Source: Candidatus Doudnabacteria bacterium | Lineage (GTDB): Bacteria > Patescibacteriota > Doudnabacteria > UBA920 > O2-02-FULL-48-8 | Assembly (NCBI GenBank): GCA_037200925.1 | Contig: JBBCGO010000001.1 | Coordinates: 383,698 to 447,697 of the forward strand | Length of the DNA stretch: 64,000 bases | Direction of reading: 5' to 3' | Part shown: one piece after another, positions 1,489-64,000 of the stretch | Numbering within the stretch: position 1 is the stretch's first letter | How the letters are laid out: each line of letters starts with the position of its first letter | Made by a program: the position numbers and the translations under genes | The notes under the pieces: generated by a model | Seen by the model: the letters and a program-made list of their open reading frames with translations, nothing else | What the model was told of the DNA's origin: nothing | The model's database searches: none

Positions 1489-2637
<1,149 letters not shown>

Positions 2638-2671
2638 TTAATGATTATACCAATTATGATACAATTTCAAC

Positions 2672-3268
2672 ATGAGCAATTACAAAATCTTTCTGGGATA
2701 CTTAGCTGTTGCGATCGAGCTGGCCAGCTATGCACCTTACTTCTGGGGTATCTACAAAGGAAAAATAAAACCTCATGCATTTACCTGGTTTGTTTGGGGA
2801 ACTCTTACCGGGATCGGATTTGTCGCTCAGATTCTTTCCGGAGCAGGTGCAGGCAGTTGGATCATGGCGCTCAATTCCATCTTCTGTTTCGCGATTGCGG
2901 GAATCGGCTTTCGGCAGAAGCACGTAAAATTCGTCTTGTTTGATTGGGTGGCGCTGGTCGGGGCTTTTTTAGCAATTGTATTTTGGAGGATTACGGATAA
3001 TCCGCTCACCGCCGTAGTTTTGATTTCCGTATCTGACGGAATCGGTCTTCTGCCCACCATACGCAAAGTTTATTATTTCCCGGATGAAGAGTCGATTTCT
3101 CCTTGGGCTTTAGGAATTCTTTATTATATTATTTCGCTTTTTGCACTACAATCCTTTACCATAACTACTTGGCTCTATCCCGCAGCGATCATCTTATTTG
3201 ATTCAATCTTCGTCCTGGAAGCAACTATCCGCCGAAGGCAATTTGCAAATAAACGTTTACAACTCTGA
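2672..3268 (+). CDS. Polytopic membrane protein, function unknown
   Basis: 198 aa, about 6 predicted hydrophobic helices, no recognisable motif. Confidence 0.5.
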   Translation: MSNYKIFLGYLAVAIELASYAPYFWGIYKGKIKPHAFTWFVWGTLTGIGFVAQILSGAGAGSWIMALNSIFCFAIAGIGFRQKHVKFVLFDWVALVGAFLAIVFWRITDNPLTAVVLISVSDGIGLLPTIRKVYYFPDEESISPWALGILYYIISLFALQSFTITTWLYPAAIILFDSIFVLEATIRRRQFANKRLQL

Positions 3269-3311
3269 AGAGATCTAATAAACTATTCTGTGTTATGCGA
3301 GAGGAGGACAC

Positions 3312-3503
3312 TTGCCGCCAACTGACCGCGACCTGATCAATTCCGTCAACAACAAGCTCATCTCCCGCAAGGTTCGAGAAAAATTCATCAGGCAGATCAT
3401 GAACCAATCCGATCTCGAACACTTCTCAGTTAGCGAAGGCCTGCCGCCCGAACTGCGCGAAGCCGCCAGCAAACGGTTGGCGGAACTACGTCAGCAATCC
3501 TAA
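3312..3503 (+). CDS. Small hypothetical protein with TTG start
   Basis: 63 aa ORF. A strong RBS GAGGAGGA at 3301-3308 sits 3 nt upstream of TTG at 3312. An intrinsic terminator follows it. Confidence 0.45.
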   Translation: MPPTDRDLINSVNNKLISRKVREKFIRQIMNQSDLEHFSVSEGLPPELREAASKRLAELRQQS

Positions 3504-3508
3504 GGTTT

Positions 3509-3538
3509 ACAGCCGGACATTTGCCTGGCTTTTTTTAT
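3509..3538 (+). terminator. Intrinsic terminator (imperfect stem plus T8)
   Basis: agccggacatttgcctggct followed by tttttttt. Confidence 0.45.
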
Positions 3539-3649
3539 TTGAAAAAAACACCTGAAACAATTTCCCGTCTGGCTCGTATAAATGAGTACAGAGTTAGTGA
3601 TCGAACTAATTCCTTCTAAATTAATAAATCCTTTTCAACATTACAACAT

Positions 3650-4636
3650 ATGTCTAACAAATATCGTTTGCTTTTAGCTGCAAGTTTAATGGGAAGTTTG
3701 GCTCTGGCAGCGCCGGCATTTGCCCAAGGCCCCCAAGGTATAGGCCGCGTGGGTCATATGGGCATGATGCGCGGCAATGGCGTATTCGGTTCAGTCACCG
3801 CAATTAGCGGCAACAATTTGACTGTGGCCAGCAAAATGAGGCCGATGGCCAACACTACAACAACTTCCGCAACCTACACAGTAGATGCCACCAATGCCAC
3901 GGTGACTAAAAACGGTGCAGCATCTACCGTTTCAAACATCGCCGTGGGTGATATGGTTATGGTCCAGGGAACAGTGAACGGAACGAGCGTCATTGCTACA
4001 AAAATCAACGACGGAATAATGATGAGAAAACCCGGCGTGTTTGGCACCGTTGCTACAATTAACGGCAACACCTTGACCGTCACAAGCAAGGTTTGGTCAA
4101 AGGGAAATACCTCGGCTGCCACATCTACTACCTACACTGTAGACGACACCAATGCCACTGTCACCAAAAACGGTGCAGCATCTTCCGTTTCAAACATTGC
4201 AGTCGGTGATACTGTCATGGTCCAGGGAACCGTGAACGGCACAAGTATCACGGCTACCGCGATTAATGACGGAATGCCTCCACGTCCGAATAAGGGACAA
4301 AACCCGCTCATTGAGGGCAATGGCCAGCCGGTCATCGCCGGCACAGTGAGCGCCATCAACGGCAATACTTTAACCGTTGCGAACAAAAACGTCACTTACA
4401 CTGTGGATGCTACCAGCGCCACAGTAACGAAAAACAATGCGGCCTCTGCTGTTTCAAGCATCGCAGTCAATGACAGCGTGATCGTTCAAGGAACAACCAA
4501 TGGCACCAATGTTACCGCCTCTTCCATAACGGATCATTCAGCATCTACAACCACTTCAGCAAACGGCACAACCAATCAGCACCTCGGATTCTTTGGCAGT
4601 ATCGGCAACTTCTTCAAACACCTCTTCGGATTCTAA
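3650..4636 (+). CDS. Secreted protein with three tandem roughly 83-aa repeats (beta-rich, DUF-type)
   Basis: Signal peptide MSNKYRLLLAASLMGSLALAAPAFA. The unit ...ISGNNLTV..K......TYTVDATNATVTKNGAASTVSNIAVGDMVMVQGTVNGTSVIATKINDG occurs 3 times, at about 3780-4020, 4030-4270 and 4320-4530. Confidence 0.7.
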   Translation: MSNKYRLLLAASLMGSLALAAPAFAQGPQGIGRVGHMGMMRGNGVFGSVTAISGNNLTVASKMRPMANTTTTSATYTVDATNATVTKNGAASTVSNIAVGDMVMVQGTVNGTSVIATKINDGIMMRKPGVFGTVATINGNTLTVTSKVWSKGNTSAATSTTYTVDDTNATVTKNGAASSVSNIAVGDTVMVQGTVNGTSITATAINDGMPPRPNKGQNPLIEGNGQPVIAGTVSAINGNTLTVANKNVTYTVDATSATVTKNNAASAVSSIAVNDSVIVQGTTNGTNVTASSITDHSASTTTSANGTTNQHLGFFGSIGNFFKHLFGF

Positions 4637-6926: not shown

Positions 6927-9143
6927 TTAGTGTCTCCCGAAATGCCTGCCGTTGCCGTTGTCGCGCCGAGGGCCCCGGTCGTGCGGACGGTCGTCGATCG
7001 TCCCGCCTTCCGGCCGCGGGATCAAAACTTTGTGTGAAAGGTTGATCCGGCCCATGTGGTCTATTTCAACAACTTTGACTTCCAGTTCATCGCCGATCTT
7101 GACCACGTCTTCAACTGCTCCGACCCTGTGCCACGCCAATTCTGAGATATGGCACATGCCGTCATGGCCGGGAGTCAGTTCCACGAAAGCGCCGAAGTCC
7201 ATGATCCGCACGACTTTTCCTTTGAAGACTTCACCGATTTTAATTTCCCTGGTCAGATTATGGATTATTTCCAAAGCTTTTTTCATGCCTTCGGCATTGT
7301 TGGACGCCACCATGACCAAGCCCGAGTCTTCAATGTCTATTTTAACTCCTGTGTCGGCAATAATTTTATTGATAATTTTGCCGCCGGTGCCGATGACATC
7401 GCGGATCCTTTCGGGATTGATCTGCATGGTCTCGATCCTGGGCGCCAAAGGCGACATTTCCGCACGCGGCTTATCAATGGTTTTTTTCATGACATCCAGA
7501 ATATGCATGCGCCCGTCGCGGGCCTGCTTCAACGCCTGGTCCAGAATTTCCACAGTCAGACCCTTGGTCTTCACATCCATCTGCATGGCGGTAATGCCCT
7601 TTTCCGAACCAGTAACTTTAAAATCCATATCGCCGTTCGCATCTTCAATTCCCTGAATGTCGGTCAGAACTTTGAATTTACCGCTGCCTACATCCAGGAC
7701 CAAACCCATGGCCACGCCCCCGATCATAGTTTCTATCGGCACCCCGGCATCCATGAGAGCTAATGTGGAGCCGCAAGTTGAACCCATGGAAGTGGAACCG
7801 TTGGAGCCCAAAGCTTCGGACACCAGCCTTAACGTATACGGGAATTTTTCTTTTGGCGGCATGACAACTTCTACTGCGCGCTCAGCCAAGGCGCCGTGTC
7901 CCACTTCGCGCCGGCCCGGCCCCCGCATGGGAGCCACTTCTCCTACTGAATATCCCGGAAAATTGTAGTGATGGATATATCTTTTCACCGTGCCGTCCAC
8001 TGTAAAATCTTCCATGCCATCAAGGATCTGCGCATCGCCTGAGGAGCCGAGTGTCACTGTGGTCAGGATCTGTGTTTCACCGCGGTTAAATAAAGCCGAG
8101 CCGTGCGTACGGGGCAGGACACCGACTTCACAGGACACAGGCCGGGTGACATTCAGTTTTCTTTCATCAACGCGCAGTTCTTTTTCCAAAATGTTTGCGC
8201 GGACGATCTTCTTGGTCACCTTTTCCAGAGCTAGGTTCGTGTGAAGCTTGTGGTTCAAGGCGCGCTCCTCAGCGCCTTTATCTGCAAATACTTCGAGAAT
8301 ATGAGCATGGGTTTCTTCGCGCACAGCTTCGTTCTGCTTTTCGCGGATTTCTTTGGAGAAAGTGCCGTACAAGGCCTTTTGCAATTTATCTGTAGCGAAT
8401 TTTTCCACTTCAGCCAAAACCTTTTCATCGGCCAGTTCGCGCTTAACTTCCGCCTTGGCCTCACCTACCTGCTTGATAAGATCGTTTTGCAGTTTGATCA
8501 GGTCAGCCAGATGCGGCTGGGCAAATTTAATCGCAGCGATCATATCGTCTTCCGTGATCTGCTTAGCGCCCGCTTCCACCATCAGTATATGTTCCGCGGT
8601 GCCTGAGACCACGAGATCCAGATCGCCTCCTTCGCGCTCTTTATAAGAAGCGTTGAGAATGAACTGCCCTTTATCGCGTCCCACTCGCACCGCAGCCACC
8701 GGACCGTCAAACGGAATACGAGAAATGCTGAGAGCTGCTGACGCGGCATTGATCGCCACCACGTCCGGATCATTCACTTCATCAACAGAAAGAATAGTCG
8801 CCACGACCTGCACGTCGTTACGCATGCCGTCCGGAAACAAAGGACGGATCGTGCGGTCGATCAGGCGGCCGGAAAGAATTGCTTCGTCGGTTGCCCGGCC
8901 TTCGCGCTTGATAAACCTAGAGCCTTTGATCTTGCCTGCGGCATAAAGCCGTTCCTCATAGTCCACCAGCAACGGAAAATATTCCATGCCCTCGCGCAAA
9001 TTTTTGCTCATGACTGCCGTGGCCAAAACCACGGTGTCTCCAAGTTTGGCCAAAACAGAGCCGTCGGCCTGCAAAGCCAAAACGCCGGTTTCAAGAGAAA
9101 ATTTCTTGCCGGCTAGATCCAAACTAACATTACCTTTTTTCAT
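6927..9143 (-). CDS. pnp: Polyribonucleotide nucleotidyltransferase (PNPase)
   Basis: 738 aa. Two RNase PH-like domains, KH (GKIINKIIADTGVKIDI) and S1 (GEVFKGKVVRIMDFGAFVEL) domains, Gly/Arg-rich C-tail. It sits directly downstream of rpsO, as is classical. Confidence 0.95.
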   Translation of the reverse strand: MKKGNVSLDLAGKKFSLETGVLALQADGSVLAKLGDTVVLATAVMSKNLREGMEYFPLLVDYEERLYAAGKIKGSRFIKREGRATDEAILSGRLIDRTIRPLFPDGMRNDVQVVATILSVDEVNDPDVVAINAASAALSISRIPFDGPVAAVRVGRDKGQFILNASYKEREGGDLDLVVSGTAEHILMVEAGAKQITEDDMIAAIKFAQPHLADLIKLQNDLIKQVGEAKAEVKRELADEKVLAEVEKFATDKLQKALYGTFSKEIREKQNEAVREETHAHILEVFADKGAEERALNHKLHTNLALEKVTKKIVRANILEKELRVDERKLNVTRPVSCEVGVLPRTHGSALFNRGETQILTTVTLGSSGDAQILDGMEDFTVDGTVKRYIHHYNFPGYSVGEVAPMRGPGRREVGHGALAERAVEVVMPPKEKFPYTLRLVSEALGSNGSTSMGSTCGSTLALMDAGVPIETMIGGVAMGLVLDVGSGKFKVLTDIQGIEDANGDMDFKVTGSEKGITAMQMDVKTKGLTVEILDQALKQARDGRMHILDVMKKTIDKPRAEMSPLAPRIETMQINPERIRDVIGTGGKIINKIIADTGVKIDIEDSGLVMVASNNAEGMKKALEIIHNLTREIKIGEVFKGKVVRIMDFGAFVELTPGHDGMCHISELAWHRVGAVEDVVKIGDELEVKVVEIDHMGRINLSHKVLIPRPEGGTIDDRPHDRGPRRDNGNGRHFGRH

Positions 9144-12554: not shown

Positions 12555-14312
12555 TTATACTTTGACTGTTTCTTTGCTGGCTATCTGCTGCCGCCATAAT
12601 GCCGCGTACAACCCTTGCTGACGTAAAAGCTCGCCATGGTTTCCCTGCTCCACCAACAAACCTTTTTCCAAAACATAGATAGTGTCCGCATGCATGATAG
12701 TGGACAATCTGTGAGCCACCAGCACATTGATGGAACTTCGCTGTTGTTTTTCAATCTCACGGATGGTCTGCGTGATCTGCTCTTCAGTGATGGAATCCAG
12801 GCTTGAGGTAGCTTCATCAAAGATCAAAAGTTCGGGTTTACGAAGCAGCGCTCTTGCTATGGCCAACCGCTGTTTCTCGCCGCCTGAAAGTCTAAGGCCT
12901 CCCTCGCCGATCCTCGTATCAAGTCCTAGTCCTCCGCGAAGCAGCAAACTATCCGCTGCAGACGCTTTCAGAGCTTCTACGCAATCAGTATCTGAAGCCT
13001 TGGGGGACGCGAACAATAAATTCTCGCGGATCGTGCCGGCAAACAGCTGAGTGTCCTGCGCCACCAAGCCGATGCGGCTGCGGAATTTTTCCGTGTTTAG
13101 ATCTCTGATATCCACTCCAGCGAATTTGATGGTGCCGGCAGTCGGCTTATATAATCCCACGATCAGCTTGACCAAGGTGGTTTTGCCGCTCCCCGAGGGC
13201 CCTACGAACGCTACGGTCTGGCCGGCTTTGATCTCTACATTGATATTTTCCAGCGCCGGTTTGTCGCCTGTCTCATATTTGAAATCCACATTTTGAAATT
13301 TTATATCCGTGAGCTTTTTCACAGCGATCGGATGAGCCGGCTGTTTTTCAGGCTCGATCTTCAGGATCTGGTCCAGCCGGTCCAAACTGGCTTTCGCTTC
13401 CTGATACTGCTGGGCGACGTCGCCGAACTGTCCCAGCGGATTGAAGATCAGGAAAGAATAGAACAGCAATGAGAAAAACTGGCCGAACGTAATGCCGCCC
13501 GTAAATATCAGCCACAGCATCAGAAGCATCAGCCCTGACCTTAAGGCATTGATCGTCGTGCCCTGGATAAAACTGAACGTGCGGATAATTCTGATCTTTT
13601 CCAGTTCCAGAGTCAAAATTTTATTGTTGGTCTCATTCAAACGTTTAATTTCCTGGTTCTCGAGACCCAGGCTTTTTACCAATTCCACATTGCGGATCGT
13701 CTCTGTGGTGGATCCGGCCAAAGCTGCGGTTTCGTTGATTATCCTTTTTTGGGCGGCCTTGATCTTGCGGCTGATAAGGAAAGTCGTAATGCCTAAAATC
13801 GGGATCATGGCAAAGTAAACCGCGCCTACCATCCAGTTGACCCAGAACGCATAAATGATGACCAGCAGAATCCCGATCGTGGACAGAAACAAAATATTGA
13901 CAGTGCTGGTAATGAAGGCTTGGGCATCGAGCCTGGCCTGCTGAAGTTTTTGTAAAAATTCACCGCTGCGCTGGTCTTCAAAAACCGCATACGGAAGGGA
14001 AAAAGAATGCTGAACGCTGTGCGAATACATTTGCGTCCCGACTCTCTGCACCACGACATTGAGGTAATAATCCTGAAAATTTTTGGCTATCCTTGATACC
14101 AGAGCCACGCCCACATCGGCCAGCAGCAGCAAAATGATGCCGCGTAAAAATACGGAATGCGACAGAGTTGCAATTTTGCTTACGTAGTCATCTACAATGA
14201 TCCGGAAGATCTGGGGATCCAACATTGAAAACACCTGGTTGACCGTCGCCAGAGCGATGGTTGCACCAAGTAATTTTTTATATTTGGATAAGTATGACCA
14301 GAGGAGTTTCAT
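12555..14312 (-). CDS. ABC exporter, fused permease-ATPase (MsbA/multidrug-type)
   Basis: 585 aa. 6-TM N-domain. Walker A GPSGSGKTT, ABC signature LSGGEKQRLAIARAL, Walker B LLIFDEATSSLD. Confidence 0.9.
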   Translation of the reverse strand: MKLLWSYLSKYKKLLGATIALATVNQVFSMLDPQIFRIIVDDYVSKIATLSHSVFLRGIILLLLADVGVALVSRIAKNFQDYYLNVVVQRVGTQMYSHSVQHSFSLPYAVFEDQRSGEFLQKLQQARLDAQAFITSTVNILFLSTIGILLVIIYAFWVNWMVGAVYFAMIPILGITTFLISRKIKAAQKRIINETAALAGSTTETIRNVELVKSLGLENQEIKRLNETNNKILTLELEKIRIIRTFSFIQGTTINALRSGLMLLMLWLIFTGGITFGQFFSLLFYSFLIFNPLGQFGDVAQQYQEAKASLDRLDQILKIEPEKQPAHPIAVKKLTDIKFQNVDFKYETGDKPALENINVEIKAGQTVAFVGPSGSGKTTLVKLIVGLYKPTAGTIKFAGVDIRDLNTEKFRSRIGLVAQDTQLFAGTIRENLLFASPKASDTDCVEALKASAADSLLLRGGLGLDTRIGEGGLRLSGGEKQRLAIARALLRKPELLIFDEATSSLDSITEEQITQTIREIEKQQRSSINVLVAHRLSTIMHADTIYVLEKGLLVEQGNHGELLRQQGLYAALWRQQIASKETVKV

Positions 14313-14316
14313 GAGG

Positions 14317-14326
14317 TATAATTATA
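14317..14326. promoter_or_regulatory. Palindromic TATAATTATA element placed so that a -10 box is readable on both strands 6-8 nt from two divergent start codons (candidate leaderless divergent promoters)
   Basis: Plus strand: TATAAT 14317-14322, then tatagc, then ATG 14329. Minus strand: TATAAT (rc of 14321-14326), then tacctc, then ATG at 14312. The same ataattatagca motif recurs at 35901 and 51501. Confidence 0.3.
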
Positions 14327-14328
14327 GC

Positions 14329-14940
14329 ATGAGCTTAGCCACCTATAAAAAGAAACGGAAATTCAGCGAAACACCCGAACCTGAAGGCAAACCGATCAAA
14401 GCGAAAGGTGCCTTGCATTTTGTCGTGCAAAAACACCACGCCAGACAGCTGCATTATGACTTCCGCCTGGAACACGATGGGGTACTGGTAAGCTGGGCTG
14501 TGCCCAAAGGGCCATCATTGAAGCTTGCGGAAAAGCACCTGGCAATGAAGGTGGAGGACCATCCGGTTGATTACATGAAATTTGAAGGCAATATTCCGGC
14601 GGGCAATTACGGTGCAGGCTCGGTCATAGTCTGGGATTTTGGCACGTATTTAGCTCTTGGCACGAATTCAGTAGCGGACAGCGAGAAAGCTATCAAACAA
14701 GGACTGAGAGCCGGACAGGTCAAAGTCGTGCTCAGCGGCAAAAAGCTCCAAGGCGGGTTTGCCTTGATAAAACTGAAAAGCAACTGGGGCGGAAAAAATT
14801 CCTGGCTTTTGATCAAAGAAAAAGATTCTTTCGTAAAAAAAACCGACGTCACCAGGCAGGTTAAATCCGTCTTAAGCGGCAAAAGCCTTGCCCAGATCGC
14901 CAAAACAGATAAAGTTTGGAAATCGAATAAGAAAAAATGA
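14329..14940 (+). CDS. LigD-type 3'-phosphoesterase (PE) domain protein, stand-alone
   Basis: YKKKRKFSETPEP..FVVQKHHARQLHYDFRLE..WAVPKGPSL..HPVDYMKFEG.IP.G.YGAG.V..WD.G match the LigD PE domain. The track ORF begins at 14197, but 14197-14310 overlaps the divergent ABC gene. In-frame ATGs at 14311 and 14329 are more plausible starts. Confidence 0.8.
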   Translation: MSLATYKKKRKFSETPEPEGKPIKAKGALHFVVQKHHARQLHYDFRLEHDGVLVSWAVPKGPSLKLAEKHLAMKVEDHPVDYMKFEGNIPAGNYGAGSVIVWDFGTYLALGTNSVADSEKAIKQGLRAGQVKVVLSGKKLQGGFALIKLKSNWGGKNSWLLIKEKDSFVKKTDVTRQVKSVLSGKSLAQIAKTDKVWKSNKKK

Positions 14941-15863
14941 GAGTCCGCCACATCAAACCCATGCTGGCAACGCTGGTTGATAAGCCGTTTGACGCGGATG
15001 GCTGGCTGTTTGAGGTCAAATGGGACGGCTTCCGCGCCATCGCCGAAGTTGAAAATGATCGTGTTGAAATATATTCCAGAAATCTTCTGTCTTTCAACAA
15101 GCGGTTTTCGCCGATCATCAAAAGTTTGCAGGGACACAAATTAAAAGCCGTCCTGGACGGCGAGATCGTGATCTTGGACAGCCGCGGCAAATCGCGTTTC
15201 GAGCTTTTGCAGCATTACCAGCAAACCGGCAAAGGGAACCTGGTTTATTATGTCTTTGATCTCTTATTTCTCAACGGCAAGGACCTCCGAAGCCAGCCGC
15301 TGCTTGAACGAAAAAAACTTCTCAAAAAAATCCTGCCCCGGAATGCCCTTATAAAATATTCGGAGCACGTTTTGGACCACGGCAAAAAATTATACGAGAA
15401 GGCCAAAAAACAAACCTGGGAAGGCATCATGGCCAAAGATTACCAAAGTCCCTACCGTGCGGGCAAAAGAACCAAAGAATGGCAAAAGATCAAAAACCGC
15501 CCGCAACAGGAAGTGGTTATCGGCGGATTTACCAAGCCTTCCGGCAGCCGCAAAAAATTCGGCGCTTTAGTCATGGGTGTTTACGAGCGGGGTAAATTAC
15601 TATACATCGGACACGCCGGCACCGGGTTTGACGAACAAACTTTGAATTTGGTTTATAATAAACTAAAACCGCTGATCCAAAAAAACCCGGCATTTAAAAA
15701 TCCGCCGGAAACCCGCGGAGAAACCACCTGGGTCAAACCCAAACTGGTCGGCGAAGTGGCTTTCGAAGAATGGACAGAAGACGGACATATGCGACAGCCG
15801 GCTTTCCTGGGACTTAGGCCCGACAAAAAAGCAAGTGAAGTAAGAAAAGAACTGCCTAAATAA
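14937..15863 (+). CDS. ATP-dependent DNA ligase (LigD ligase domain), stand-alone
   Basis: 308 aa. Adenylation motif I EVKWDGFRA (KxDG), nucleotidyltransferase plus OB-fold layout. Its start overlaps the PE stop (ATGA). Confidence 0.85.
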   Translation: MRVRHIKPMLATLVDKPFDADGWLFEVKWDGFRAIAEVENDRVEIYSRNLLSFNKRFSPIIKSLQGHKLKAVLDGEIVILDSRGKSRFELLQHYQQTGKGNLVYYVFDLLFLNGKDLRSQPLLERKKLLKKILPRNALIKYSEHVLDHGKKLYEKAKKQTWEGIMAKDYQSPYRAGKRTKEWQKIKNRPQQEVVIGGFTKPSGSRKKFGALVMGVYERGKLLYIGHAGTGFDEQTLNLVYNKLKPLIQKNPAFKNPPETRGETTWVKPKLVGEVAFEEWTEDGHMRQPAFLGLRPDKKASEVRKELPK

Positions 15864-15864
15864 T

Positions 15865-16773
15865 ATGAAACAAGAAACCACTATCAAAATTGAGGGAAAA
15901 GTTCTCAAACTGACCAACCTGGACAAGGTCTTCTGGCCGAAAGAAAAATACACTAAAGGCGACGTCATCGATTATTATCAAAAGATCGCGCCATATATTC
16001 TGCCTTATCTTAAAAACCGGCCGGAATCTTTAAACCGCCACCCCAACGGCATTACAGGCAAAAATTTTTTCCAGAAAGACGTGGACCACATACCGCCTAA
16101 ATGGGCCAAGGTTGAAAATATCTATTCGGAATCCAACGATAAAGATATCCATTATTTGGTCTGCCAGGATAAGGCCACGCTGATCTATATGGCCAATCTT
16201 GGCTGCATAGAGATCAATCCGTGGAATTCCAGGATCGGCAAGCTGCATCATCCGGATTTTATGATCATTGACCTGGACCCGGAAAAAATTTCCTTTGACC
16301 AGGTTGTTGTAGTCGCCCAAACCGTGCACGAGGTTCTAAATTCATTAAAACTTCCAAGCTATTGCAAAACTTCGGGCGCAACCGGGTTGCATATCTATGT
16401 GCCTATGGGCGCCAAATATAATTACGACCAGGTCCGGCATCTGGCGCACCAGATCGTAATTTTGGTCAACAGCAAACTGCCGAACATCACTAGCCTGGAA
16501 CGCCATCCGGCGAAAAGGCAGGGGAAGGTTTACTTGGACTATCTGCAAAATAACAAAGGCCAGACTTTGGCTGTCGCCTACAGCGTCCGCCCTAAACCCG
16601 GGGCTACGGTTTCAACTCCTCTGGAATGGAAAGAAGTGAAAAAAGGCTTGAGCCCGCAGGATTTTAACATCAAAAATATTTTCGCGCGTTTGAAAAAGAA
16701 GGGCGACCTCTGGAAGCCGGTCTTGGGCAAAGGGATTGACCTGAAGTCTGTTTTAAAACGTATTGAAAAATAA
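15865..16773 (+). CDS. LigD primase-polymerase (Pol) domain protein, stand-alone
   Basis: 302 aa. IIDLDP, SGATGLHIYVP and YLDYLQN motifs of the archaeo-eukaryotic primase-type LigD polymerase domain. Begins 1 nt after the ligase stop. Confidence 0.85.
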   Translation: MKQETTIKIEGKVLKLTNLDKVFWPKEKYTKGDVIDYYQKIAPYILPYLKNRPESLNRHPNGITGKNFFQKDVDHIPPKWAKVENIYSESNDKDIHYLVCQDKATLIYMANLGCIEINPWNSRIGKLHHPDFMIIDLDPEKISFDQVVVVAQTVHEVLNSLKLPSYCKTSGATGLHIYVPMGAKYNYDQVRHLAHQIVILVNSKLPNITSLERHPAKRQGKVYLDYLQNNKGQTLAVAYSVRPKPGATVSTPLEWKEVKKGLSPQDFNIKNIFARLKKKGDLWKPVLGKGIDLKSVLKRIEK

Positions 16774-16806
16774 AAAATCCGCCTCAATACTTAAGATTGA
16801 AGCGGC
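16774..16806. terminator. Bidirectional terminator between convergent genes
   Basis: aaaaaatccgcctcaatacttaagattgaagcggcg. Confidence 0.55.
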
Positions 16807-16812
16807 GAGCAA

Positions 16813-17109
16813 CTAATCGAACGGGTCACCGTTTGGGTCTGCTTTGCCAAAGGTTCGATGGAAACCGTCGTAGCTACTCCTCAGAGCTTGAGCTTCGTCA
16901 CTGTCATACTCAGGGTCTTTCGGATTGTACTCGAAGGGCTGATCGTTTTCAGCAACGAAATTACGACACTCCGCGCATTCCTGCAGATGTTGTTTCAGTT
17001 CTGCCAGTCTTTCATCATCAATCCTGTCATCCAGGCCGCGAGCGAATTTGCGCAACAACGATTGGTTCAAGTCGCCCCAAACGCACTCCATCTTGAATTC
17101 CTCCTTCAC
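16813..17109 (-). CDS. Small zf-HC2-type (anti-sigma-factor-like) zinc-finger protein
   Basis: 98 aa. The HLQECAECRNF H-x3-C-x2-C motif is typical of the zinc fingers of RsrA/ChrR-type anti-sigma factors. No sigma factor gene is adjacent. Confidence 0.45.
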   Translation of the reverse strand: MKEEFKMECVWGDLNQSLLRKFARGLDDRIDDERLAELKQHLQECAECRNFVAENDQPFEYNPKDPEYDSDEAQALRSSYDGFHRTFGKADPNGDPFD

Positions 17110-38270: not shown

Positions 38271-39671
38271 TTAAACTTCAAAACTTTCCAGCAGCTTTGG
38301 AATGGTGATCTTGAAATCAGGATGACCTTGCTCCAGAATTTCTTTCAGCGCTTCGGCTTGCGGCAGTTCGGTGTGGACCAAAAATAAATTCTTCAGGCCC
38401 TGGATATTTTTTATATAATCTTTCAAAAAATCCTGATCCCCGTGCGCGCTGAATTCGTTCATGGTAATAACGCGAGCGCGAATATTTAAACTGGAACCCA
38501 AAATTTGTATGGGACTTTCACCGTGATGTATTTTCCGGCCAAGCGTGCCCTCGGCCTGATATCCTGTGATCAAGATCGTATTTTTCGGATCTTCAATATT
38601 GTTCTTCAAATGATGAAGGATGCGGCCGCCTTCCATCATTCCTGAAGAGGATATGATGATGAATGGCCCGGGTCTGGTATTCAAAGCCTTGGATTCTTCC
38701 ACCGTATGAATATACTGCAAATTTTTGAATGCCAGAGGCAGTTCATTTTTGCTGAAAAAATCCTGATCGGTCTCAGCGTCAAAATCTTCTTCGTGCTTGG
38801 CAAAAACTTCGCTGATGTTCAGCGCCAGCGGGCTGTCAACGAATATGGGAATGTCCTGGACGATCTTCCGGTCCGTCAGATCATGCAGAATATACACCAA
38901 TTCCTGCGTCCGGCCCAGAGCGAATGCCGGAATGATGATCTTGCCGCGGTTTTTGATGGCGAAATCTATGACTTCGCGCAGCTGGCCGGCAGCATCAGAC
39001 AAAGGTTTGTGTTTGGTCCCTCCGTAAGTTGCCTCGCTGATCAGAACATCGGAATTTTCCTGTACAGGCTCCGGGTCATGCAGGATCGGCGCTCCCGGCT
39101 GGCCTATATCACCGGTATAAGCCAAACCTCTGATAGTATCGTTCTCCTTGATCTCAAGATAAGTAATTGCGGATCCTAAAATATGGCCCGCGTCGTAAAA
39201 TTTAAACCGGATGCGGTCATTGATCTGGGTCCATTGCCCGGTTAAACGAAAATACGGGACGATCTCAAAATACTGGAAGATATTTTCAGCCTCTTCTTTC
39301 GTGTACATGACGCCGGGACTGGGAATTCCCGGGTGATTCTGAGCGTATTTGGAATCCATGGACTGGACCATGGCGCTGTCGATCAAAATAAATTTGGCGA
39401 TATCTGCCGTGGCACCGGTGCAATAAATTTTTCCTTTGAATCCGTTCTTTACTAGAATGGGCAGCATGCCGCAATGATCCGCATGAGCATGCGATAAAAT
39501 AACGCAGTCAATAGTCTTGGCATCAAAAGGCAAGGTCTGATGTTCCGGATCCCCGCCGGTGTGTTCGCCCTGCTGCAAACCGCAATCCAAAAGTATTCTG
39601 GATCCTTGCGTTTCGAGCAAATGTTTGGAACCGGTGACAGTTTGCGCCGCGCCGTAAAAAGTTATTTTCAT
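38271..39671 (-). CDS. MBL-fold beta-CASP family hydrolase (RNA-metabolising metallo-beta-lactamase)
   Basis: 466 aa. HAHADH motif (ILSHAHADHCG). beta-CASP insert and C-terminal RNA-specificity-type region. Confidence 0.8.
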   Translation of the reverse strand: MKITFYGAAQTVTGSKHLLETQGSRILLDCGLQQGEHTGGDPEHQTLPFDAKTIDCVILSHAHADHCGMLPILVKNGFKGKIYCTGATADIAKFILIDSAMVQSMDSKYAQNHPGIPSPGVMYTKEEAENIFQYFEIVPYFRLTGQWTQINDRIRFKFYDAGHILGSAITYLEIKENDTIRGLAYTGDIGQPGAPILHDPEPVQENSDVLISEATYGGTKHKPLSDAAGQLREVIDFAIKNRGKIIIPAFALGRTQELVYILHDLTDRKIVQDIPIFVDSPLALNISEVFAKHEEDFDAETDQDFFSKNELPLAFKNLQYIHTVEESKALNTRPGPFIIISSSGMMEGGRILHHLKNNIEDPKNTILITGYQAEGTLGRKIHHGESPIQILGSSLNIRARVITMNEFSAHGDQDFLKDYIKNIQGLKNLFLVHTELPQAEALKEILEQGHPDFKITIPKLLESFEV

Positions 39672-39674
39672 ATT

Positions 39675-42600
39675 TTACTCTTTAATGTCCCCTCCCGTAC
39701 TAGGAAAACTGGGTACTTGTCCAGAATTGTTCATTTGAACAATGGGTCCTTGGGGGAGCAGCAGATCCAGGCTGTTGGCAGGGAGCACGTCTTTGAATTG
39801 ATAGCCATAGGAGTAGAAGACTGCTTCAGACGGAAAACCATACCGAAGATCAGTGCCCAGAAGATATACGGTTCCCTGATTAAGAATCAAAGCTCCTACC
39901 GGGTGCCTGATGTTGGAAGAAAGGATGGATTCCCCTTCAGGAATAGCACTCGTGTCTGCTCGTATGACATTGGATAGTTTGTATCCTAGGGCTGTGAATA
40001 CGGCCATAGAGACAAAAGGACGTTTAAAGCCCTGGGACATGACATAGATCACCCCATGGTCCAGCAGAAGAGAGCCGTCTGATGTTAGGGTATTGGAAGC
40101 CTGCTGATTCGTACCTGGTGGTACATATGGGGCACAACAGGTTGGGCCTCCTCCGCCAGAAGGTGGAGGTGGAGGCGGAGGGGGCGGAGTTGAACCACCG
40201 AAATTCCAGTTGATATTGCCTCCCCCATCAATACAATTGGTACAGGTGACCACGGATGTAGCATGAGATGAGGATACGGAGAGATATGATAGAACACTTG
40301 AACCTTGGGAGTCTAGATTCCAGGCAGAGGAACCTGTGGTGAATTTCTGGATGCGGCCGTTGTTGGCATCTGCGACATAAATATTACCGGAGTGGTCCAT
40401 TGTAATACCTAGCGGAACAGCAAACTGGCCATCGCCCGAACCAGGTATCCCGCTCTGACATCCGGAGGTGCAAATTTGAAACGCATTTGTTGTTCCATCT
40501 TGAACACCCCAGCCGAATGTGAGGAGTAAATTACCCGAAGGGTCGAATTTCTCAATGCGGTTGTTTTGGATGTTGGCGACATAAATATTATTTGATGAGT
40601 CAATTGCAATACCTTGGGGATCGATAAACTGTCCATAGCCCCCACCTTCCGAACCAGCCTGGCATCCGGATGTGCAGATCTCAAACTGATCTGCTCCATC
40701 CTGCACTCCCCAGCCGATGGTATACTCAAAGACCGGCTCACCCGTGTTCAGAGAAAATTTCTGGATGCGGCTATTGTCAGAATCTGTGACATAGATATTA
40801 TTGAACGAGTCAATTGCAAGGAATGCTGGCTCATTGAACTGGCCGGCATCCGAACCTCGTATCCCACCCTGGCATCCGGAGGTGCAAATTTGAAACGCAT
40901 TTGTTGTTCCATCTTGAACACCCCAGCCGAAGGTGGAAAGAAAAGCACCGTCAGGGTCAAATTTCTGGATGCGGTTATTGCTAGCATCTACAACATAAAT
41001 GTTGCCCGAAGAGTCAAATACAATTCCTTGAGGATACTCAAATTGCCCATCGCCGGAACCTTCGGTTCCCCATTGAGTTACAAATCCTTCACCGGAATTG
41101 AATACCTCAATACGATGATTACTGCTATCCGTGACATAAATATTATTGGAAGAGTCAATTGCAATACCTCCGGGAACTAAGAATTGGCCGTCACCGCTGC
41201 CGCCAATCCCAGTTTGACAGCCCGATGTGCAGATCTCAAACTGATCTGCTCCAGTTTGTACTCCCCAGCCGAAGGTGGAAAGGAAATTGCCGGAAGGGTC
41301 AAATTTCTGGATGCGGCTATTTCCTTGATCCACGACATAAATATTACCTGAAGAGTCATTTGCAATGCCTATAGGATTATTTAATTCTCCTTCTGGGCTA
41401 CTATTGCCGAACTTTGAGAGAAAATTCTCTGAAGGATCAAATTTCTCGATACGTATGCCGCTGTCCGCAACATAAATATTGCCGGAAGCATCAACCGTAA
41501 CACCTACAGGTAAACTTGTCTGCCCCTCGCCCCCTGGCACATCTGGGTCATCGGCGGGTATCCCAGCCTGGCAGCCGGATGTGCAAATCTGAAATTCTTC
41601 TGTTCCGTCCAGCACTCCCCAGCCGAAAGTAGATTGAAAGGCGCCATTAGAACCAAATACCTGAATGCGACTATTGCCATAATCTGCAACATAAATATTA
41701 TCTGAGGAGTCGGTTGTAATACCGCCGGATGCATTGAATTGTCCGGCACCTGGGCCGGATATCCCGGCCTGACATCCTGACGTGCAGGTTTGGAATGCAT
41801 TTGCACCAGTCTGCACCCCCCAGCCAAAGGTAGATTGAAAGGCGCCCGAAGTATTAAATTTCTGGATACGGCTATTGTCGTTGTCTGCAACATAAATATT
41901 ATCTGAGGAGTCAATGGCTATATAATAAGGATGCTTTAATTGGCCATCGCCTGAGCCAAAACTTCCCCATGCGGAAATAAAGTGGCCGTCGGGACCAAAT
42001 TTCTGGATGCGATTATTGCCGGCATCAGAAATATAGACATTGCCTGAAGAATCGGCCGCAACACTAATACCGCCAGACCCGTCAAATTGGCCGGGACCGG
42101 AGCCTGCTATTCCGGCCTGACAGTTTGAATTACAGACTTGGAATGCAGGTGTTCCATCCAGCACCCCCCAACCAAAGGTTTTAATGAAAGTACCGGCGGA
42201 TGTGAATTCCTGGACGCGATTAGTATCTACTATGTAAATATTATTAGAGGAATCAACTATAATACCGCCGGGCGCATCGAATTGGCCGTCTCCCGTGCCG
42301 AAACTTCCCCATTTGATAATAAAATTGCCGGAAGGATCAAATTTCTGGATGCGGTTATTGTTAACATCTACGGCGTAAATATTTCCTGAGGAGTCATGCG
42401 CAATGCCTGTGATCTGGCTAAAATTTCCATCAACGGTATTGCTTCCTATACCAAACTTCGAAGCAAACACAGGCTGACCGGTGCCGGGTGCATGGTTCAA
42501 AGTCAGTAATCCCGTAGAAACACCAGTCAGAGTAAGTGTGCCTGTGACAGTTGTAGTATTAGCAGGGTCAAAGGATAAGGTGTCTGCAATGGTTGTGATC

Positions 42601-45600
42601 TTGGTTAAGTTATAGAAAGTATTGGAACCAAGTATGGTTTGGTTGGTTCCTGTGAGGATAACTGTGGAGGTATCGGCATGCAATTCGCCGTTATTGGTAA
42701 GGTTCCCTGAGATATTGAATGTGTTTGTACCCAGATGTAAGGCGCCCCCATCTGAGATGGTGATATCATCGATGGATTGATCATTGGTTAATGTAACTTC
42801 ATTATTTATCGTGGCGGAATCCAGATAAGTTGGATAATCAATACCCGCGATCCCGGGAGAAGTATTGCCCCAGGTAGCCCCATCATTCCAATTGCCGTCT
42901 TGTACAGAAGTAAAAGAAGAAGGAACCAATACGGTTACAAAGTTCCAGTTGATGTTCCCTCCTTCATCAGTACAATTGGTACAAGTGACGGCAGATGCCG
43001 AGTGAGATGAAGATACGGAAAGATATGATAGTGCGCTGGATCCTGAAGAGTTTAGATTCCAGGTATCGGCAGAGGTGGTGAATTTTTGGGTGTAAACATA
43101 AATATTATTTAATGGGTCAACCGCTATGATCCCAGGTTCTGAGAACTGGCCATCACCCGCGAAACCATTTATTCCACCCTGACATCCGGAGAAACAAGTC
43201 TCAAAATGATTTGCTCCATCCAGCACGCCCCAGCCGAATGTGAGAAGGAAATGGCCTGCTGGGTCAAGTTTCTGGATACGGCTGCTTTGACTGTCGCTGA
43301 CATAAAGGTTGCCCGATGAGTCGATGGCAATACCTTGAGGACCATTAAGCTCACCATCACCCATACCGGCTATTCCAGCCTGGCAATTGGATGTACAAGA
43401 CTCCCACATATTTGCGCCAGTTTGTACTCCCCAGCCGAAAGTGGAGAGAAACGTGCCCGAGGAATCAAATTTCTGGATGCGATTATTGAAATTATCCGGG
43501 ACATAAACATTATTAGAAGAATCAACCGCTACACTGTTAAGCCCGCTAAACTCACTTTCGCTTGTGCCGGGACTTCCCCATTTGGTAACGAAGTTGCCGG
43601 AAGGGCCGAATTTCTCGATGCGGGTATTCCCGTTATCTGCAACATAAAGATTGCCGAATGAGTCGAAGACCATAGCCTGAGAATTATTAAATTGGCCATC
43701 GCCTGAACCAACTATTCCACCCTGGCATCCGGAGGTACAGATCTCAAATTGATTTGCTCCATCCTGCACTCCCCAGCCGAAAGTGGAAAGGAAATGACCT
43801 CCCGAGTCAAATTTTTCAATACGGCTGTTTAGATTTCCGGCATCACTAACGTATATGTTACCCAGGGTGTCGGTTGTAATACCCTGAGGAAGATTGAATT
43901 GCCCGTCACCCGAACCTGCTAAGCCAACCTGACATCCGGAGGTACAGATCTCAAATTGATTTGCTCCATCCTGCACTCCCCAGCCAAAGGTAAAGAGGAA
44001 ATGGCCTGACGGATCAAATTTCTGGATGCGGTCACTGAAACTGTCTGCAACATAAAAATTTCCTGAAGCGTCGGCTCTTATGCCTCCGGCTTGATTTATT
44101 ACGCCTTCCGCTTGGTTATCGCCGAATATTGAGAGGAAATTACCCGAAGGATCAAATATCTTGACTCTGTAATTGTTCGAGTCCGTGACGTAAACTTTGC
44201 CGGAAGAGTCGGTTGAAATACCTGCGGGGGAAAAAACAAAAAAACTGTCACCGGAGGGAGGACTTTCCCACTCGGTGAAAAAACTGCCGTCAGAGTGAAA
44301 TTTCTCTATGCGGGCATTATTACCGGCCCAATCAGCAACATAAATATCGCCCGCTTGATCAACTGTAATAACCTGGGGATTAGAAAACTGGTCCAGACCA
44401 TCTCCTGTAATTCCAGCCAGGCAAGGCGTTGTTAAGTTTGTACAGATCTCAAAATGATTTGCTCCATCCTGTACTCCCCATCCGAAGGTGGACAGGAAAG
44501 TGCCGGCCGAATCAAATTTCTCAACTCGATAGTTGCCGTTATCGATTACGTAGAGATCATCTGATGAATCAATGGCGATGCCTAAGGGCTGATTAAACTC
44601 GCCATCGCCAGAGCCAATACTTCCCCACTGGGAAATGTAATTACCCGCAGAGTCAAATTTCTGGATACGATTATTGTTAGTATCTGTCACATAAAGAAAG
44701 TCGTCAGATGAGTCGATGGTAATGCCTGAAGGCTGATTAAACTCGCCATCGCCAGAGCCAATACTTCCCCACTGGGAAATGTAATTACCGGAAGAATCGA
44801 ATTTTTCGATACGATTATTGCCACTATCTACAACGTAGACATCAGAAGCGTCAGCAGTAGTTGTAATACCGGTAACACTATCAAACTGCCCATTGTCTGT
44901 GCCACCACCTCCCCATCTCGTAATGAAGTTGCCTGAGTGGTCAAGTTTCTGGATGTAATTATTGGAGTCATCCGCCACGTAGAAGTTACCCAAAGAATCG
45001 GTGGCAATGGCAGTCGGCGACTGAAAATTTCCACCAACCGAAAATGTATCAATCCCGATCCTGGAATCAAAAACAGGGCCATTGCTGGGTGAATGATTAA
45101 CAGTCAGCAGTCCCGTAGAAACTCCGGTAAGGGTCAGTGTGCCTGTGACGGTAGTAGTATTAGCCGGATCAAAGGAAAGAGTGTCTGCAACAGTTGTGAT
45201 TTTGGTTAAGTTATAAAAGTTATTATTTCCCAGTATTGTCTGGTTGCTGCCTGTAAGGATAACATGGGAAGTGCCGGCATTCAGGGTGCCGTTATTAGTA
45301 AAGTTCCCGGAGACAGAGAAAACGCGTGTTCCCAGATCTAAAGTGCCGCCATCTGAGATAGTGATATCGTGGACGGATCGGTCTTGTGTTAGTGTTACGT
45401 TGTTTTCTATAGTCGCATCATCTGTCGGACCTGGAAAATCAACCCCAATGACTCCGGGAGAGGTATTGCCCCAGGTAGCTCCGTCATTCCAGTTCCCGTC
45501 CTGCGCGGAGGTGAAAGAGGAGGCAAAAGCTTTATGGGGAGCCAGAATAGCCAAAGCAAAAAAAACCGCCAGCAAAAAAGGCATTGCTGGAAAAAATTTC

Positions 45601-45626
45601 AATCGTGTTTTTGTTTCAGGCCCCAT
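39675..45626 (-). CDS. Giant secreted NHL-repeat (multi-beta-propeller) protein with poly-Pro hinge and conserved C-terminal domain
   Basis: 1983 aa. Signal peptide. More than 40 NHL-type blades (recurring ..YV.D..N.RIQKFD..G.F...FG..G...G.F..P.GIA.D..). Cys-containing TSGCQ insertions. PPPPPPPPPSGGGGPTCCAPY then an approximately 230-aa C-terminal domain. Confidence 0.85.
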   Translation of the reverse strand: MGPETKTRLKFFPAMPFLLAVFFALAILAPHKAFASSFTSAQDGNWNDGATWGNTSPGVIGVDFPGPTDDATIENNVTLTQDRSVHDITISDGGTLDLGTRVFSVSGNFTNNGTLNAGTSHVILTGSNQTILGNNNFYNLTKITTVADTLSFDPANTTTVTGTLTLTGVSTGLLTVNHSPSNGPVFDSRIGIDTFSVGGNFQSPTAIATDSLGNFYVADDSNNYIQKLDHSGNFITRWGGGGTDNGQFDSVTGITTTADASDVYVVDSGNNRIEKFDSSGNYISQWGSIGSGDGEFNQPSGITIDSSDDFLYVTDTNNNRIQKFDSAGNYISQWGSIGSGDGEFNQPLGIAIDSSDDLYVIDNGNYRVEKFDSAGTFLSTFGWGVQDGANHFEICTNLTTPCLAGITGDGLDQFSNPQVITVDQAGDIYVADWAGNNARIEKFHSDGSFFTEWESPPSGDSFFVFSPAGISTDSSGKVYVTDSNNYRVKIFDPSGNFLSIFGDNQAEGVINQAGGIRADASGNFYVADSFSDRIQKFDPSGHFLFTFGWGVQDGANQFEICTSGCQVGLAGSGDGQFNLPQGITTDTLGNIYVSDAGNLNSRIEKFDSGGHFLSTFGWGVQDGANQFEICTSGCQGGIVGSGDGQFNNSQAMVFDSFGNLYVADNGNTRIEKFGPSGNFVTKWGSPGTSESEFSGLNSVAVDSSNNVYVPDNFNNRIQKFDSSGTFLSTFGWGVQTGANMWESCTSNCQAGIAGMGDGELNGPQGIAIDSSGNLYVSDSQSSRIQKLDPAGHFLLTFGWGVLDGANHFETCFSGCQGGINGFAGDGQFSEPGIIAVDPLNNIYVYTQKFTTSADTWNLNSSGSSALSYLSVSSSHSASAVTCTNCTDEGGNINWNFVTVLVPSSFTSVQDGNWNDGATWGNTSPGIAGIDYPTYLDSATINNEVTLTNDQSIDDITISDGGALHLGTNTFNISGNLTNNGELHADTSTVILTGTNQTILGSNTFYNLTKITTIADTLSFDPANTTTVTGTLTLTGVSTGLLTLNHAPGTGQPVFASKFGIGSNTVDGNFSQITGIAHDSSGNIYAVDVNNNRIQKFDPSGNFIIKWGSFGTGDGQFDAPGGIIVDSSNNIYIVDTNRVQEFTSAGTFIKTFGWGVLDGTPAFQVCNSNCQAGIAGSGPGQFDGSGGISVAADSSGNVYISDAGNNRIQKFGPDGHFISAWGSFGSGDGQLKHPYYIAIDSSDNIYVADNDNSRIQKFNTSGAFQSTFGWGVQTGANAFQTCTSGCQAGISGPGAGQFNASGGITTDSSDNIYVADYGNSRIQVFGSNGAFQSTFGWGVLDGTEEFQICTSGCQAGIPADDPDVPGGEGQTSLPVGVTVDASGNIYVADSGIRIEKFDPSENFLSKFGNSSPEGELNNPIGIANDSSGNIYVVDQGNSRIQKFDPSGNFLSTFGWGVQTGADQFEICTSGCQTGIGGSGDGQFLVPGGIAIDSSNNIYVTDSSNHRIEVFNSGEGFVTQWGTEGSGDGQFEYPQGIVFDSSGNIYVVDASNNRIQKFDPDGAFLSTFGWGVQDGTTNAFQICTSGCQGGIRGSDAGQFNEPAFLAIDSFNNIYVTDSDNSRIQKFSLNTGEPVFEYTIGWGVQDGADQFEICTSGCQAGSEGGGYGQFIDPQGIAIDSSNNIYVANIQNNRIEKFDPSGNLLLTFGWGVQDGTTNAFQICTSGCQSGIPGSGDGQFAVPLGITMDHSGNIYVADANNGRIQKFTTGSSAWNLDSQGSSVLSYLSVSSSHATSVVTCTNCIDGGGNINWNFGGSTPPPPPPPPPSGGGGPTCCAPYVPPGTNQQASNTLTSDGSLLLDHGVIYVMSQGFKRPFVSMAVFTALGYKLSNVIRADTSAIPEGESILSSNIRHPVGALILNQGTVYLLGTDLRYGFPSEAVFYSYGYQFKDVLPANSLDLLLPQGPIVQMNNSGQVPSFPSTGGDIKE

Positions 45627-63477: not shown

Positions 63478-64000
63478 CTAACTATAGCTTAATCCAATTC
63501 CGCTTTTGCTAATGTCCTTTGTTGGGGTGCCCGATGGGGCTCTAGCCACCACTTTCCTGTGTGCGACGAATAATGGTTTGAAATCGTCGTGCGGTTCTAT
63601 GGCTACAACCTTTTGATCCTGCACCCAAATTCGTTTAATTGTTGTTTGTATCCACTCACGCTTTTCTTCCATATCTATCGTGTGCCAGAATTGTTTGAAG
63701 TCCTTGAGGAATTTTTCAGTCTTTTTTGTATATTCAGCTTCCTTAAGTTTACCATTATTATTTACTAACCCCAAACTTTCGTATTTTTTCAGCTCGCTAT
63801 TGATGTCCTTGATTTGCTGTAGGTATTCAGCTTCTGTGAGTTCTTCGGTATTCTGCCATTGAAAGTTTACTTTTTTCTTTCTGGCCTGCAACTTATCTAC
63901 GATCGAGGTGTCCTTCACTGATTGGCTGGCTTGCTTAAATAAATCCTTGAGCTTGGATAACGTATGCTCAATAATATCTGAGGGTATATTAAACCCCTCC
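63478..64000 (-). CDS. Hypothetical protein, C-terminal part (the reading frame stays open to the window end; the GTG at 63918 used by the track is probably internal)
   Basis: Minus frame reads ...EGFNIPSDIIEHTLSKLKDLFKQASQSVKDTSIVDKLQARKKK... with no stop before 64000. The coiled-coil-rich C-terminus and the ...IKRIWVQDQKVVAIE... tail are faintly reminiscent of large serine recombinase C-terminal regions. Confidence 0.35.
   Translation of the reverse strand, partial: EGFNIPSDIIEHTLSKLKDLFKQASQSVKDTSIVDKLQARKKKVNFQWQNTEELTEAEYLQQIKDINSELKKYESLGLVNNNGKLKEAEYTKKTEKFLKDFKQFWHTIDMEEKREWIQTTIKRIWVQDQKVVAIEPHDDFKPLFVAHRKVVARAPSGTPTKDISKSGIGLSYS

Follow-up and report, generated by a model that had tools for sequence, protein, structure and literature searches.

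The stretch of DNA analysed here, referred to as the window, comprises 64 kb from a metagenome-assembled genome (MAG) of Candidatus Doudnabacteria, within the Patescibacteria or candidate phyla radiation (CPR), and belongs to a source contig of 964,444 bp. It was found to contain three consecutive genes for a phosphoesterase (PE), an ATP-dependent DNA ligase (Lig) and a primase-polymerase (Pol), the modules of the LigD enzyme of bacterial nonhomologous end joining (NHEJ), without an adjacent gene for Ku. Comparison with the corresponding loci of relatives indicates that the split genes descend from a fused bacterial LigD, that Ku was deleted from its ancestral site directly upstream, and that the three remaining genes are maintained by purifying selection. 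On this evidence the genes probably form a functional operon able to work without Ku.

Organization of the locus

The reading frames and domain profiles confirmed the original prediction that the three LigD modules are encoded separately and consecutively. PE (14329–14940, plus strand) is a stand-alone LigD-type 3'-phosphoesterase of 203 aa; Lig (14937–15863, plus strand) is a stand-alone NHEJ-type ATP-dependent DNA ligase of 308 aa with nucleotidyltransferase and OB domains; and Pol (15865–16773, plus strand) is a stand-alone LigD primase-polymerase of the AEP family with 302 aa. Stop codons divide the three open reading frames (ORFs), and none of them contains a frameshift or an internal stop. 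From the ORF coordinates and the sequence, the junctions are as had been claimed, with the PE stop and the Lig start overlapping in ATGA at 14937–14940 and a single nucleotide separating the Lig stop from the Pol start.

The position 14311, from which the region had been said to begin, held up in part. It corresponds to an alternative PE start that gives the 209-aa protein called in GenBank, but the PE ORF opens at 14197 and its likelier start is the ATG at 14329 (MSLATYKKKR), which is conserved in relatives. The loci of relatives compared with the window are designated by L numbers; in one of them, L002, from the Ku-less Doudnabacteria MAG GCA_039931165.1 (L012 lies on the same contig), an in-frame stop is located just upstream of the position matching this ATG. 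All three proteins are already in GenBank as MEJ0021413-15, where they are named as NHEJ ligase or LigD N-terminal domain proteins. The Pol sequence is 100% identical to its GenBank protein and occurs also in the Logan assembly SRR28211699.

On the left, the operon is flanked by a divergent ABC transporter gene (12555–14312, minus strand, 585 aa, PF00664 and PF00005), whose orthologue in relatives sits just upstream of Ku. This gene serves as the synteny anchor and marks the left edge of the Ku deletion. The start codons of ABC and PE are only 16 bp apart; this junction, GAGGTATAATTATAGC (14313–14328), is regarded as the deletion scar and takes the place of the intergenic region and the Ku gene of relatives. 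On the right, a G+C-rich hairpin with a 10-bp stem (16779–16805) forms a terminator-like site and a likely transcription stop, with a T-run on the minus-strand side only. The hairpin stands between Pol and a convergent small ORF for a zf-HC2 protein, an anti-sigma-like zinc finger (16813–17109, minus strand).

Domain identity and catalytic residues

Domains were called with Pfam and NCBIfam profiles at curated cutoffs, and all tested sequence features of the PE, Lig and Pol domain families were found. PE matched PF13298 with 142.5 bits (cutoff 31.1; 6.5e-42) and TIGR02777 with 206.1 bits (cutoff 144), and its top match in the Protein Data Bank (PDB) was 2LJ6/3N9B, with 5DMP also matched at 4.9e-41. 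In the Pseudomonas aeruginosa enzyme, PMC8656161 assigns Mn binding to the triad His42, His48 and Asp50 and phosphate binding to Arg52, His84 and Tyr88; these six residues align with H36, H42, D44, R46, H78 and Y82 of the window protein. PE is predicted to be a Mn-dependent 3'-phosphatase and 3'-ribonucleoside resection enzyme.

Lig scored 327.8 bits against TIGR02779 (cutoff 227.75) and carries both PF01068 and PF04679; its top PDB match was 1VS0, the ligase domain of Mycobacterium tuberculosis LigD, at 4.9e-50. It contains K28 in KWDG, LDGEIV, YYVFD, EGIMAK, WQKIK and RQPAFLGLRPDK, which are ligase motifs I, III, IIIa, IV, V and VI by the established definition of these motifs. Pol matched PF21686 with 315.4 bits (cutoff 27.4; 3.9e-94) and TIGR02778 with 251.2 bits (cutoff 214.7). 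Its top PDB match was the NHEJ polymerase of Methanocella paludicola, 5DMU, at 2.1e-64, and Prim-PolC, 6SA0, matched more weakly at 7.8e-41; on alignment to these two structures, the catalytic aspartates of the AEP family (D136 and D138 in DxD, and D225), H176 and the nucleotide-binding motif SGATGLH at 170–176 were all present. For all three proteins the matches to solved structures are unambiguous. The motifs had been described as intact in each module, with a loss of catalytic residues named as the sign of pseudogenisation, and the alignments found every catalytic residue in place and none lost. Against models of the canonical one-polypeptide LigD, the products stayed below the cutoff, with 290 and 276 bits for TIGR02776 (cutoff 373) and 229–311 bits for NF004628 (cutoff 895), and each product matched its own segment only of these full-length models.

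Promoter and expression signals

A promoter-like site was found on the plus strand at 14294–14322, consisting of a -35 element ATGACC, a 17-nt spacer and a -10 element TATAAT, with 10/12 matches to the consensus. Between the end of the -10 element and the PE ATG there are 6 nt, a spacing that fits a leaderless mRNA starting at this codon. Relative to the ATG, TATAAT occupies exactly the positions -12 to -7 in the window, L002, L005, L006 and L018, and TAGAAT is found in L010; the box is kept with or without Ku upstream, and the surrounding sequence differs between loci. Furthermore, three opposite-strand genes lie between Ku and PE in L010, so that PE-Lig-Pol of that locus must be transcribed without Ku. 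This pattern suggests that PE-Lig-Pol have their own promoter, and it can be inferred that they already were an independent transcription unit before the Ku deletion, which would explain how the operon could still be expressed afterwards.

The 16-bp junction includes a perfect palindrome, TATAATTATA (14317–14326), which provides a -10 element for both strands, 6 nt before PE and 8 nt before the ABC start, and a promoter scan returned the plus-strand and the minus-strand sites each at 10/12 matches. The junction may therefore be a minimal bidirectional leaderless promoter, either created or exposed by the deletion of Ku. A Shine-Dalgarno-like motif was found for 6 of the 52 predicted genes of the window, and TAnAAT stands 5–7 nt before the ATG of several genes (starts at 2672 and 14329 on the plus strand and at 19078 and 38217 on the minus strand). 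Many mRNAs of this organism may be leaderless.

Absence of Ku from the window and its deletion from the ancestral site

The claim that the 64 kb contain no Ku was borne out by three kinds of search. A tblastn search of the window with Ku from a close relative reached no better than E = 0.14, for a hit inside the ABC gene. A Ku hidden Markov model (HMM), built from 120 Ku sequences and run with --max (no filters) on six-frame ORFs of at least 30 aa, returned nothing from the window at E<=10, and the same model detects Ku at 1e-90 to 1e-144 in most of the related loci. Pfam likewise gave no Ku match over nearly all window ORFs. The space immediately outside the window, where a Ku gene would have made this a conventional split NHEJ locus, was covered with Logan contigs for 5.7 kb on the left and 9.5 kb on the right, and no Ku was found there. 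A two-component NHEJ locus with a linked Ku gene (PF02735) was not found in the 64 kb and the ~15 kb of flank.

The arrangement in relatives explains what is missing. The syntenic order is PNPase, S15, a XerC-like recombinase, the ABC transporter on the minus strand, the NHEJ genes and then a secreted protein of 350–370 aa, and Ku lies directly upstream of PE in most syntenic relatives (L003/L004, the P0021 contig, L005, L006, L007/L008, L010/L011, L013–L018 and others). In L007, whose Pol, like that of L008, is 84% identical to the window Pol, the ABC and PE start codons are separated by 964 bp (7501–8464), made up of a 172-bp intergenic region, a 783-bp Ku gene and a 9-bp spacer; the same distance is 81 bp in L002 and 16 bp in the window. 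Since Ku is upstream of or adjoins the LigD genes in most of the 80 genome loci, fused-LigD outgroups included, presence of Ku is the ancestral state. By this comparison, the window locus was not Ku-less from the outset: its Ku was deleted secondarily, at precisely the ancestral position of the gene.

The original prediction asked whether the locus has a Ku-independent role or relies on a distant Ku, and this was judged the right question. A conventional but unlinked pathway would have Ku elsewhere in the genome, relocated or foreign, and working with the split LigD proteins as it does in relatives. Unlinked arrangements may occur, for no adjacent Ku was found in several relatives with full 10-kb flanks (L025, L054, L079, L083, L084 and L087), and of the present genome, which measures at least 964 kb, ~79 kb were directly inspected for Ku. 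Strong purifying selection on PE, Lig and Pol would also be expected if the full pathway were intact. Yet the deletion removed Ku precisely at its ancestral position, and a relocated orthologue, expected at ~80% identity, should have appeared in a protein search with the L003 Ku as query against a collection of 5.8 billion proteins. That search listed at least 120 matches, down to 60% identity, and none of the matches listed is on the 964,444-bp source contig. Many of the listed Ku matches do share contigs with Pol matches (contigs of 478967, 44112, 195809, 385993, 640683 and 262407 bp, and others). On general grounds, it seems improbable that a streamlined genome of ~1 Mb would have a second Ku of foreign origin. 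Taken together, an unlinked Ku was considered rather unlikely. For the stronger proposition, that the genome is devoid of any Ku and nevertheless keeps a complete PE, Lig and Pol set under purifying selection, the chances were put at about even.

The protein collection's gene table has gaps, as became clear from L006 (Doudnabacteria MAG GCA_019659045.1). Because gene calls are missing there at 2172–4620, its PE, Lig and Pol (2191–4633) were considered as possible pseudogenes, which was rejected, as the three ORFs are intact and merely missing from the table. A missing gene call in this collection is therefore no evidence that the gene is absent.

Selection and retention of the split genes

Conservation argues that PE, Lig and Pol are under purifying selection. 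Among the near-invariant columns, defined on 26 Ku-linked relatives, the window keeps 61/61 in PE, 59/62 in Lig and 75/75 in Pol, or 195/198 in total. The ratio of nonsynonymous to synonymous substitution rates (dN/dS) was calculated by NG86, with dS saturated for many pairs and only the closest trio usable, roughly: between the window and L002, rough values of 0.08 for Lig and 0.09 for Pol were obtained with dS saturated (>1), and between the window and L007 the approximate range was 0.06–0.15. Evolution is fast in the window lineage as a whole: its ABC protein is 72–75% identical to outgroups, as compared with 79–83% for L007, and the identity deficit of the window NHEJ proteins is no larger than that of this flanking protein.

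Relationships were assessed by bootstrapped neighbour joining (NJ; 200 replicates) together with synapomorphy counts. The window groups with L002 and L007 in 200/200 bootstraps, and L002 is its sister in 162/200, with synapomorphies of 7:3:0 in the NHEJ genes. This grouping suggests one old loss of Ku followed by long retention of PE-Lig-Pol. No shared pattern of Ku-minus-specific substitutions at family-invariant positions, such as might mark a lost Ku interface, was found; the three changes observed, S251P, P252A and N260R, are confined to the window and fall in one loop of the Lig OB domain (15684–15716, residues 250–260), where the SPF motif has become PAF and L002 keeps the consensus.

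Beyond the window, a series of locus states is seen among syntenic relatives: Ku-PE-Lig-Pol, PE-Lig-Pol and Pol only. The last is represented by the Doudnabacteria-like L020 (4806–5660) and L085 (6404–7249), which have lost Ku, PE and Lig and retain an intact stand-alone Pol of 281–284 aa with DLD and SGATGLH. As this series is read, the locus is eroding stepwise, and Pol appears to be its most persistent module.

The same series could mean that the window holds a decaying remnant of a dead pathway: the loss of Ku would be recent, and PE, Lig and Pol would be intact simply because they have not had time to decay, and would later go the way of the Pol-only relatives. The three Lig substitutions peculiar to the window would fit such a beginning, and the tree is compatible with an independent recent loss of Ku. 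Decay of this kind is difficult to reconcile with three ORFs free of frameshifts and stops, with the retention of every catalytic residue and of nearly all near-invariant columns, with the low dN/dS, and with a divergence that does not exceed that of the flanking ABC gene. Moreover, the Ku-less L002, 17–30% diverged at the protein level, keeps the three genes and the promoter box. The remnant was thus regarded as quite unlikely, and a set of genes maintained for use after the loss of Ku is preferred.

Origin of the split by fission of LigD

The order of the three genes is the domain order of a fused PE-Lig-Pol LigD, and intermediate forms exist. With respect to reading frames, 43 of 80 loci have a fused PE~Lig~Pol, 12 have a separate PE followed by a fused Lig~Pol (PE|Lig~Pol), and 17 have three genes (PE|Lig|Pol). 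Fused forms come from Bacteroidota, Planctomycetota, Saccharibacteria and other Patescibacteria, including some Doudnabacteria; PE|Lig~Pol includes L013–L015, the nearest loci outside the window's clade; and PE|Lig|Pol comprises the window, nearly all of its closest relatives and a few more distant loci. The fused LigDs of other Patescibacteria and of Bacteroidota are ~57–70% identical to the window in Pol. Because gene order equals domain order and the loci form a graded series, the split is read as a stepwise fission of a bacterial fused LigD, from fused through PE|Lig~Pol to PE|Lig|Pol.

An archaeal origin by horizontal transfer was considered and rejected, since the named homologues among the 120 Pol matches listed and all 80 loci are bacterial. 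The likeness to an archaeal arrangement, to which the original prediction had pointed, is real insofar as PE, Lig and Pol are separate genes in one operon as in archaea; with bacterial nearest homologues, that likeness is convergent. It is hardly credible that errors of assembly or sequencing broke a single fused ligD into three ORFs: fused PE~Lig~Pol is indeed the commonest state among more distant relatives, but more than 10 independent assemblies (NCBI, JGI, ENA and Logan) share the three-gene structure, the databases contain well over a hundred proteins of ~300 aa with Pol alone, and the junctions are clean start/stop overlaps with no frameshifts within conserved sequence.

Proposed function without Ku

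The interpretation that we consider probable, though far from assured, is that of a functional three-gene operon, derived by fission of a bacterial LigD and deprived of Ku by the upstream deletion, which acts as a Ku-independent module for end healing, gap filling and sealing. In such a module, PE-Lig-Pol would be transcribed on their own leaderless mRNA, and translation would be coupled at both junctions, the ATGA overlap and the 1-nt gap. By reference to characterised LigD systems (PMC4797286, PMC8656161), Pol would dock on the 5'-phosphate at a gap or break and extend the 3' end with a preference for ribonucleotides. As in those systems, PE would strip 3'-phosphates and trim ribonucleotide tracts to a single 3'-ribonucleotide-OH, and Lig would seal last. 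In the absence of Ku, the module would act preferentially on nicks, short gaps and 3'-blocked breaks, by analogy with excision repair by mycobacterial LigC/Prim-PolC; inefficient microhomology-mediated end joining via polymerase-mediated synapsis might take place besides, and efficient Ku-dependent NHEJ would not be expected. In mycobacteria, a ligase/Prim-Pol pair is already known to carry out repair without Ku (PMC5663958).

Several points weigh against this interpretation. Efficient end joining by LigD needs Ku in the characterised systems, according to PMC8656161 and PMC9638933. The genome may have a Ku that is less than 60% identical, encoded on another contig or missing from the protein collection, and the gene table of that collection is incomplete, as the L006 case illustrates. 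The sister grouping of the window and L002 is moderately supported, and raw distances place the window nearest to the Ku-bearing L007; if the Ku losses were recent and independent, the argument from long retention would be weaker. The Pol-only loci L020 and L085 show that further decay is possible, the dN/dS values are rough with dS saturated, and the promoter is predicted from a consensus match and conservation in sequence.

If the genes do operate without Ku, they would represent a dedicated Ku-independent pathway assembled from NHEJ enzymes, for example for RNA-patch gap repair or repair of 3'-blocked breaks, and the natural deletion series in a syntenic locus would allow the roles that the individual modules have without Ku to be compared directly.

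Relation to known systems

A similar published layout is that of the archaeo-prokaryotic NHEJ operon of Methanocella paludicola, in which Ku, Lig, Pol and PE are separate (PDB 5DMU, 5DMP); split operonic PE, Lig and Pol have been described (PMC4797286). As in that operon, the window encodes PE, Lig and Pol as separate polypeptides in one operon, and its Pol and PE match the structures 5DMU and 5DMP, respectively. The archaeal operon has Ku and the window locus does not, and the window genes come from bacterial fused LigDs, with the nearest relatives in Patescibacteria and Bacteroidota, so that the shared layout is convergent. The Pseudomonas aeruginosa-type LigD (PE-Lig-Pol, with Ku) has a domain order equal to the gene order of the window and shares the six conserved PE active-site residues, with 2LJ6/3N9B as the top PDB match of PE, but it is one gene accompanied by Ku, whereas the window has three genes and no adjacent Ku.

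Stand-alone LigD-like enzymes acting without Ku are known from mycobacteria, where LigC and Prim-PolC (PMC5663958, PMC7442782), a stand-alone ATP-dependent ligase and a stand-alone LigD-like primase-polymerase, perform gap filling and sealing as is proposed for the window. The two sets are not orthologous: the window Pol is closer to 5DMU (2.1e-64) than to the Prim-PolC structure 6SA0 (7.8e-41), and the window Lig is above the cutoff for the NHEJ-ligase domain model only and not for other ligase models. Furthermore, the LigC operon lacks a PE gene, and the window operon includes one.

Sharda et al. 2020 (PMC7719229) distinguished 'nonconventional NHEJ', with the LigD domains in different proteins, from 'LigD only', with LigD but no Ku, and found ~90% of LigD-only genomes without POL and PE. 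In contrast to most of that class, the window genome keeps the genes for all three activities; sets that are complete but lack Ku are the less common ones. The same study associated NHEJ with large genomes and slow growth (PMC7719229), and the window genome is by comparison that of a CPR bacterium of ~1 Mb. A further difference from the classes of Sharda et al. is that the Ku loss is here pinned to a specific deletion by means of a Ku-bearing close relative.

As split LigD and Ku-less LigD are both published, the locus is a well-documented example and no new kind of enzyme or system. Its occurrence in a CPR genome of ~1 Mb, the mapped Ku deletion and the erosion series among syntenic relatives appear to be undescribed in the literature searched, where a single paper mentions LigD, end joining and Patescibacteria together. 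Bacterial NHEJ is usually portrayed as a pair of Ku and LigD; here a streamlined CPR genome holds the whole LigD toolkit, with Ku lost by a datable deletion. Together with Ku-bearing and Pol-only relatives, the window thus offers a compact natural system for the roles of the LigD modules without Ku, and it is a clear case of gene fission in a multidomain repair enzyme.

Neighbouring genes

Several other genes in the window and its flanks were noted. An AP_endonuc_2 gene (PF01261; xylose isomerase-like/Endo IV superfamily) is located ~3 kb past the left end of the window, at 14557–15399 of L092; its product, if of the Endo IV type, could supply substrates for PE-Lig-Pol. At 38271–39671 on the minus strand lies a gene for a 466-aa protein with a beta-CASP metallo-beta-lactamase and an RMMBL domain. 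Eukaryotic NHEJ employs a beta-CASP nuclease; the window protein is most likely an RNA enzyme of the RNase J/CPSF type. Next to it, two adjacent giant genes on the minus strand (39675–45626 and 45664–51459) encode proteins of 1983 and 1931 aa densely filled with NHL/beta-propeller repeats, one of them with a GDSL lipase domain, and these are probably large surface proteins. Beyond the right end of the window (63478–64000 onward; L093 1–9983) there is a cluster of a serine recombinase, Fic, an ADP-ribosylglycohydrolase, DUF2779 and a 1519-aa AAA_11/AAA_12 helicase with a Top1-type zinc ribbon, which looks like a mobile element or a defence island.

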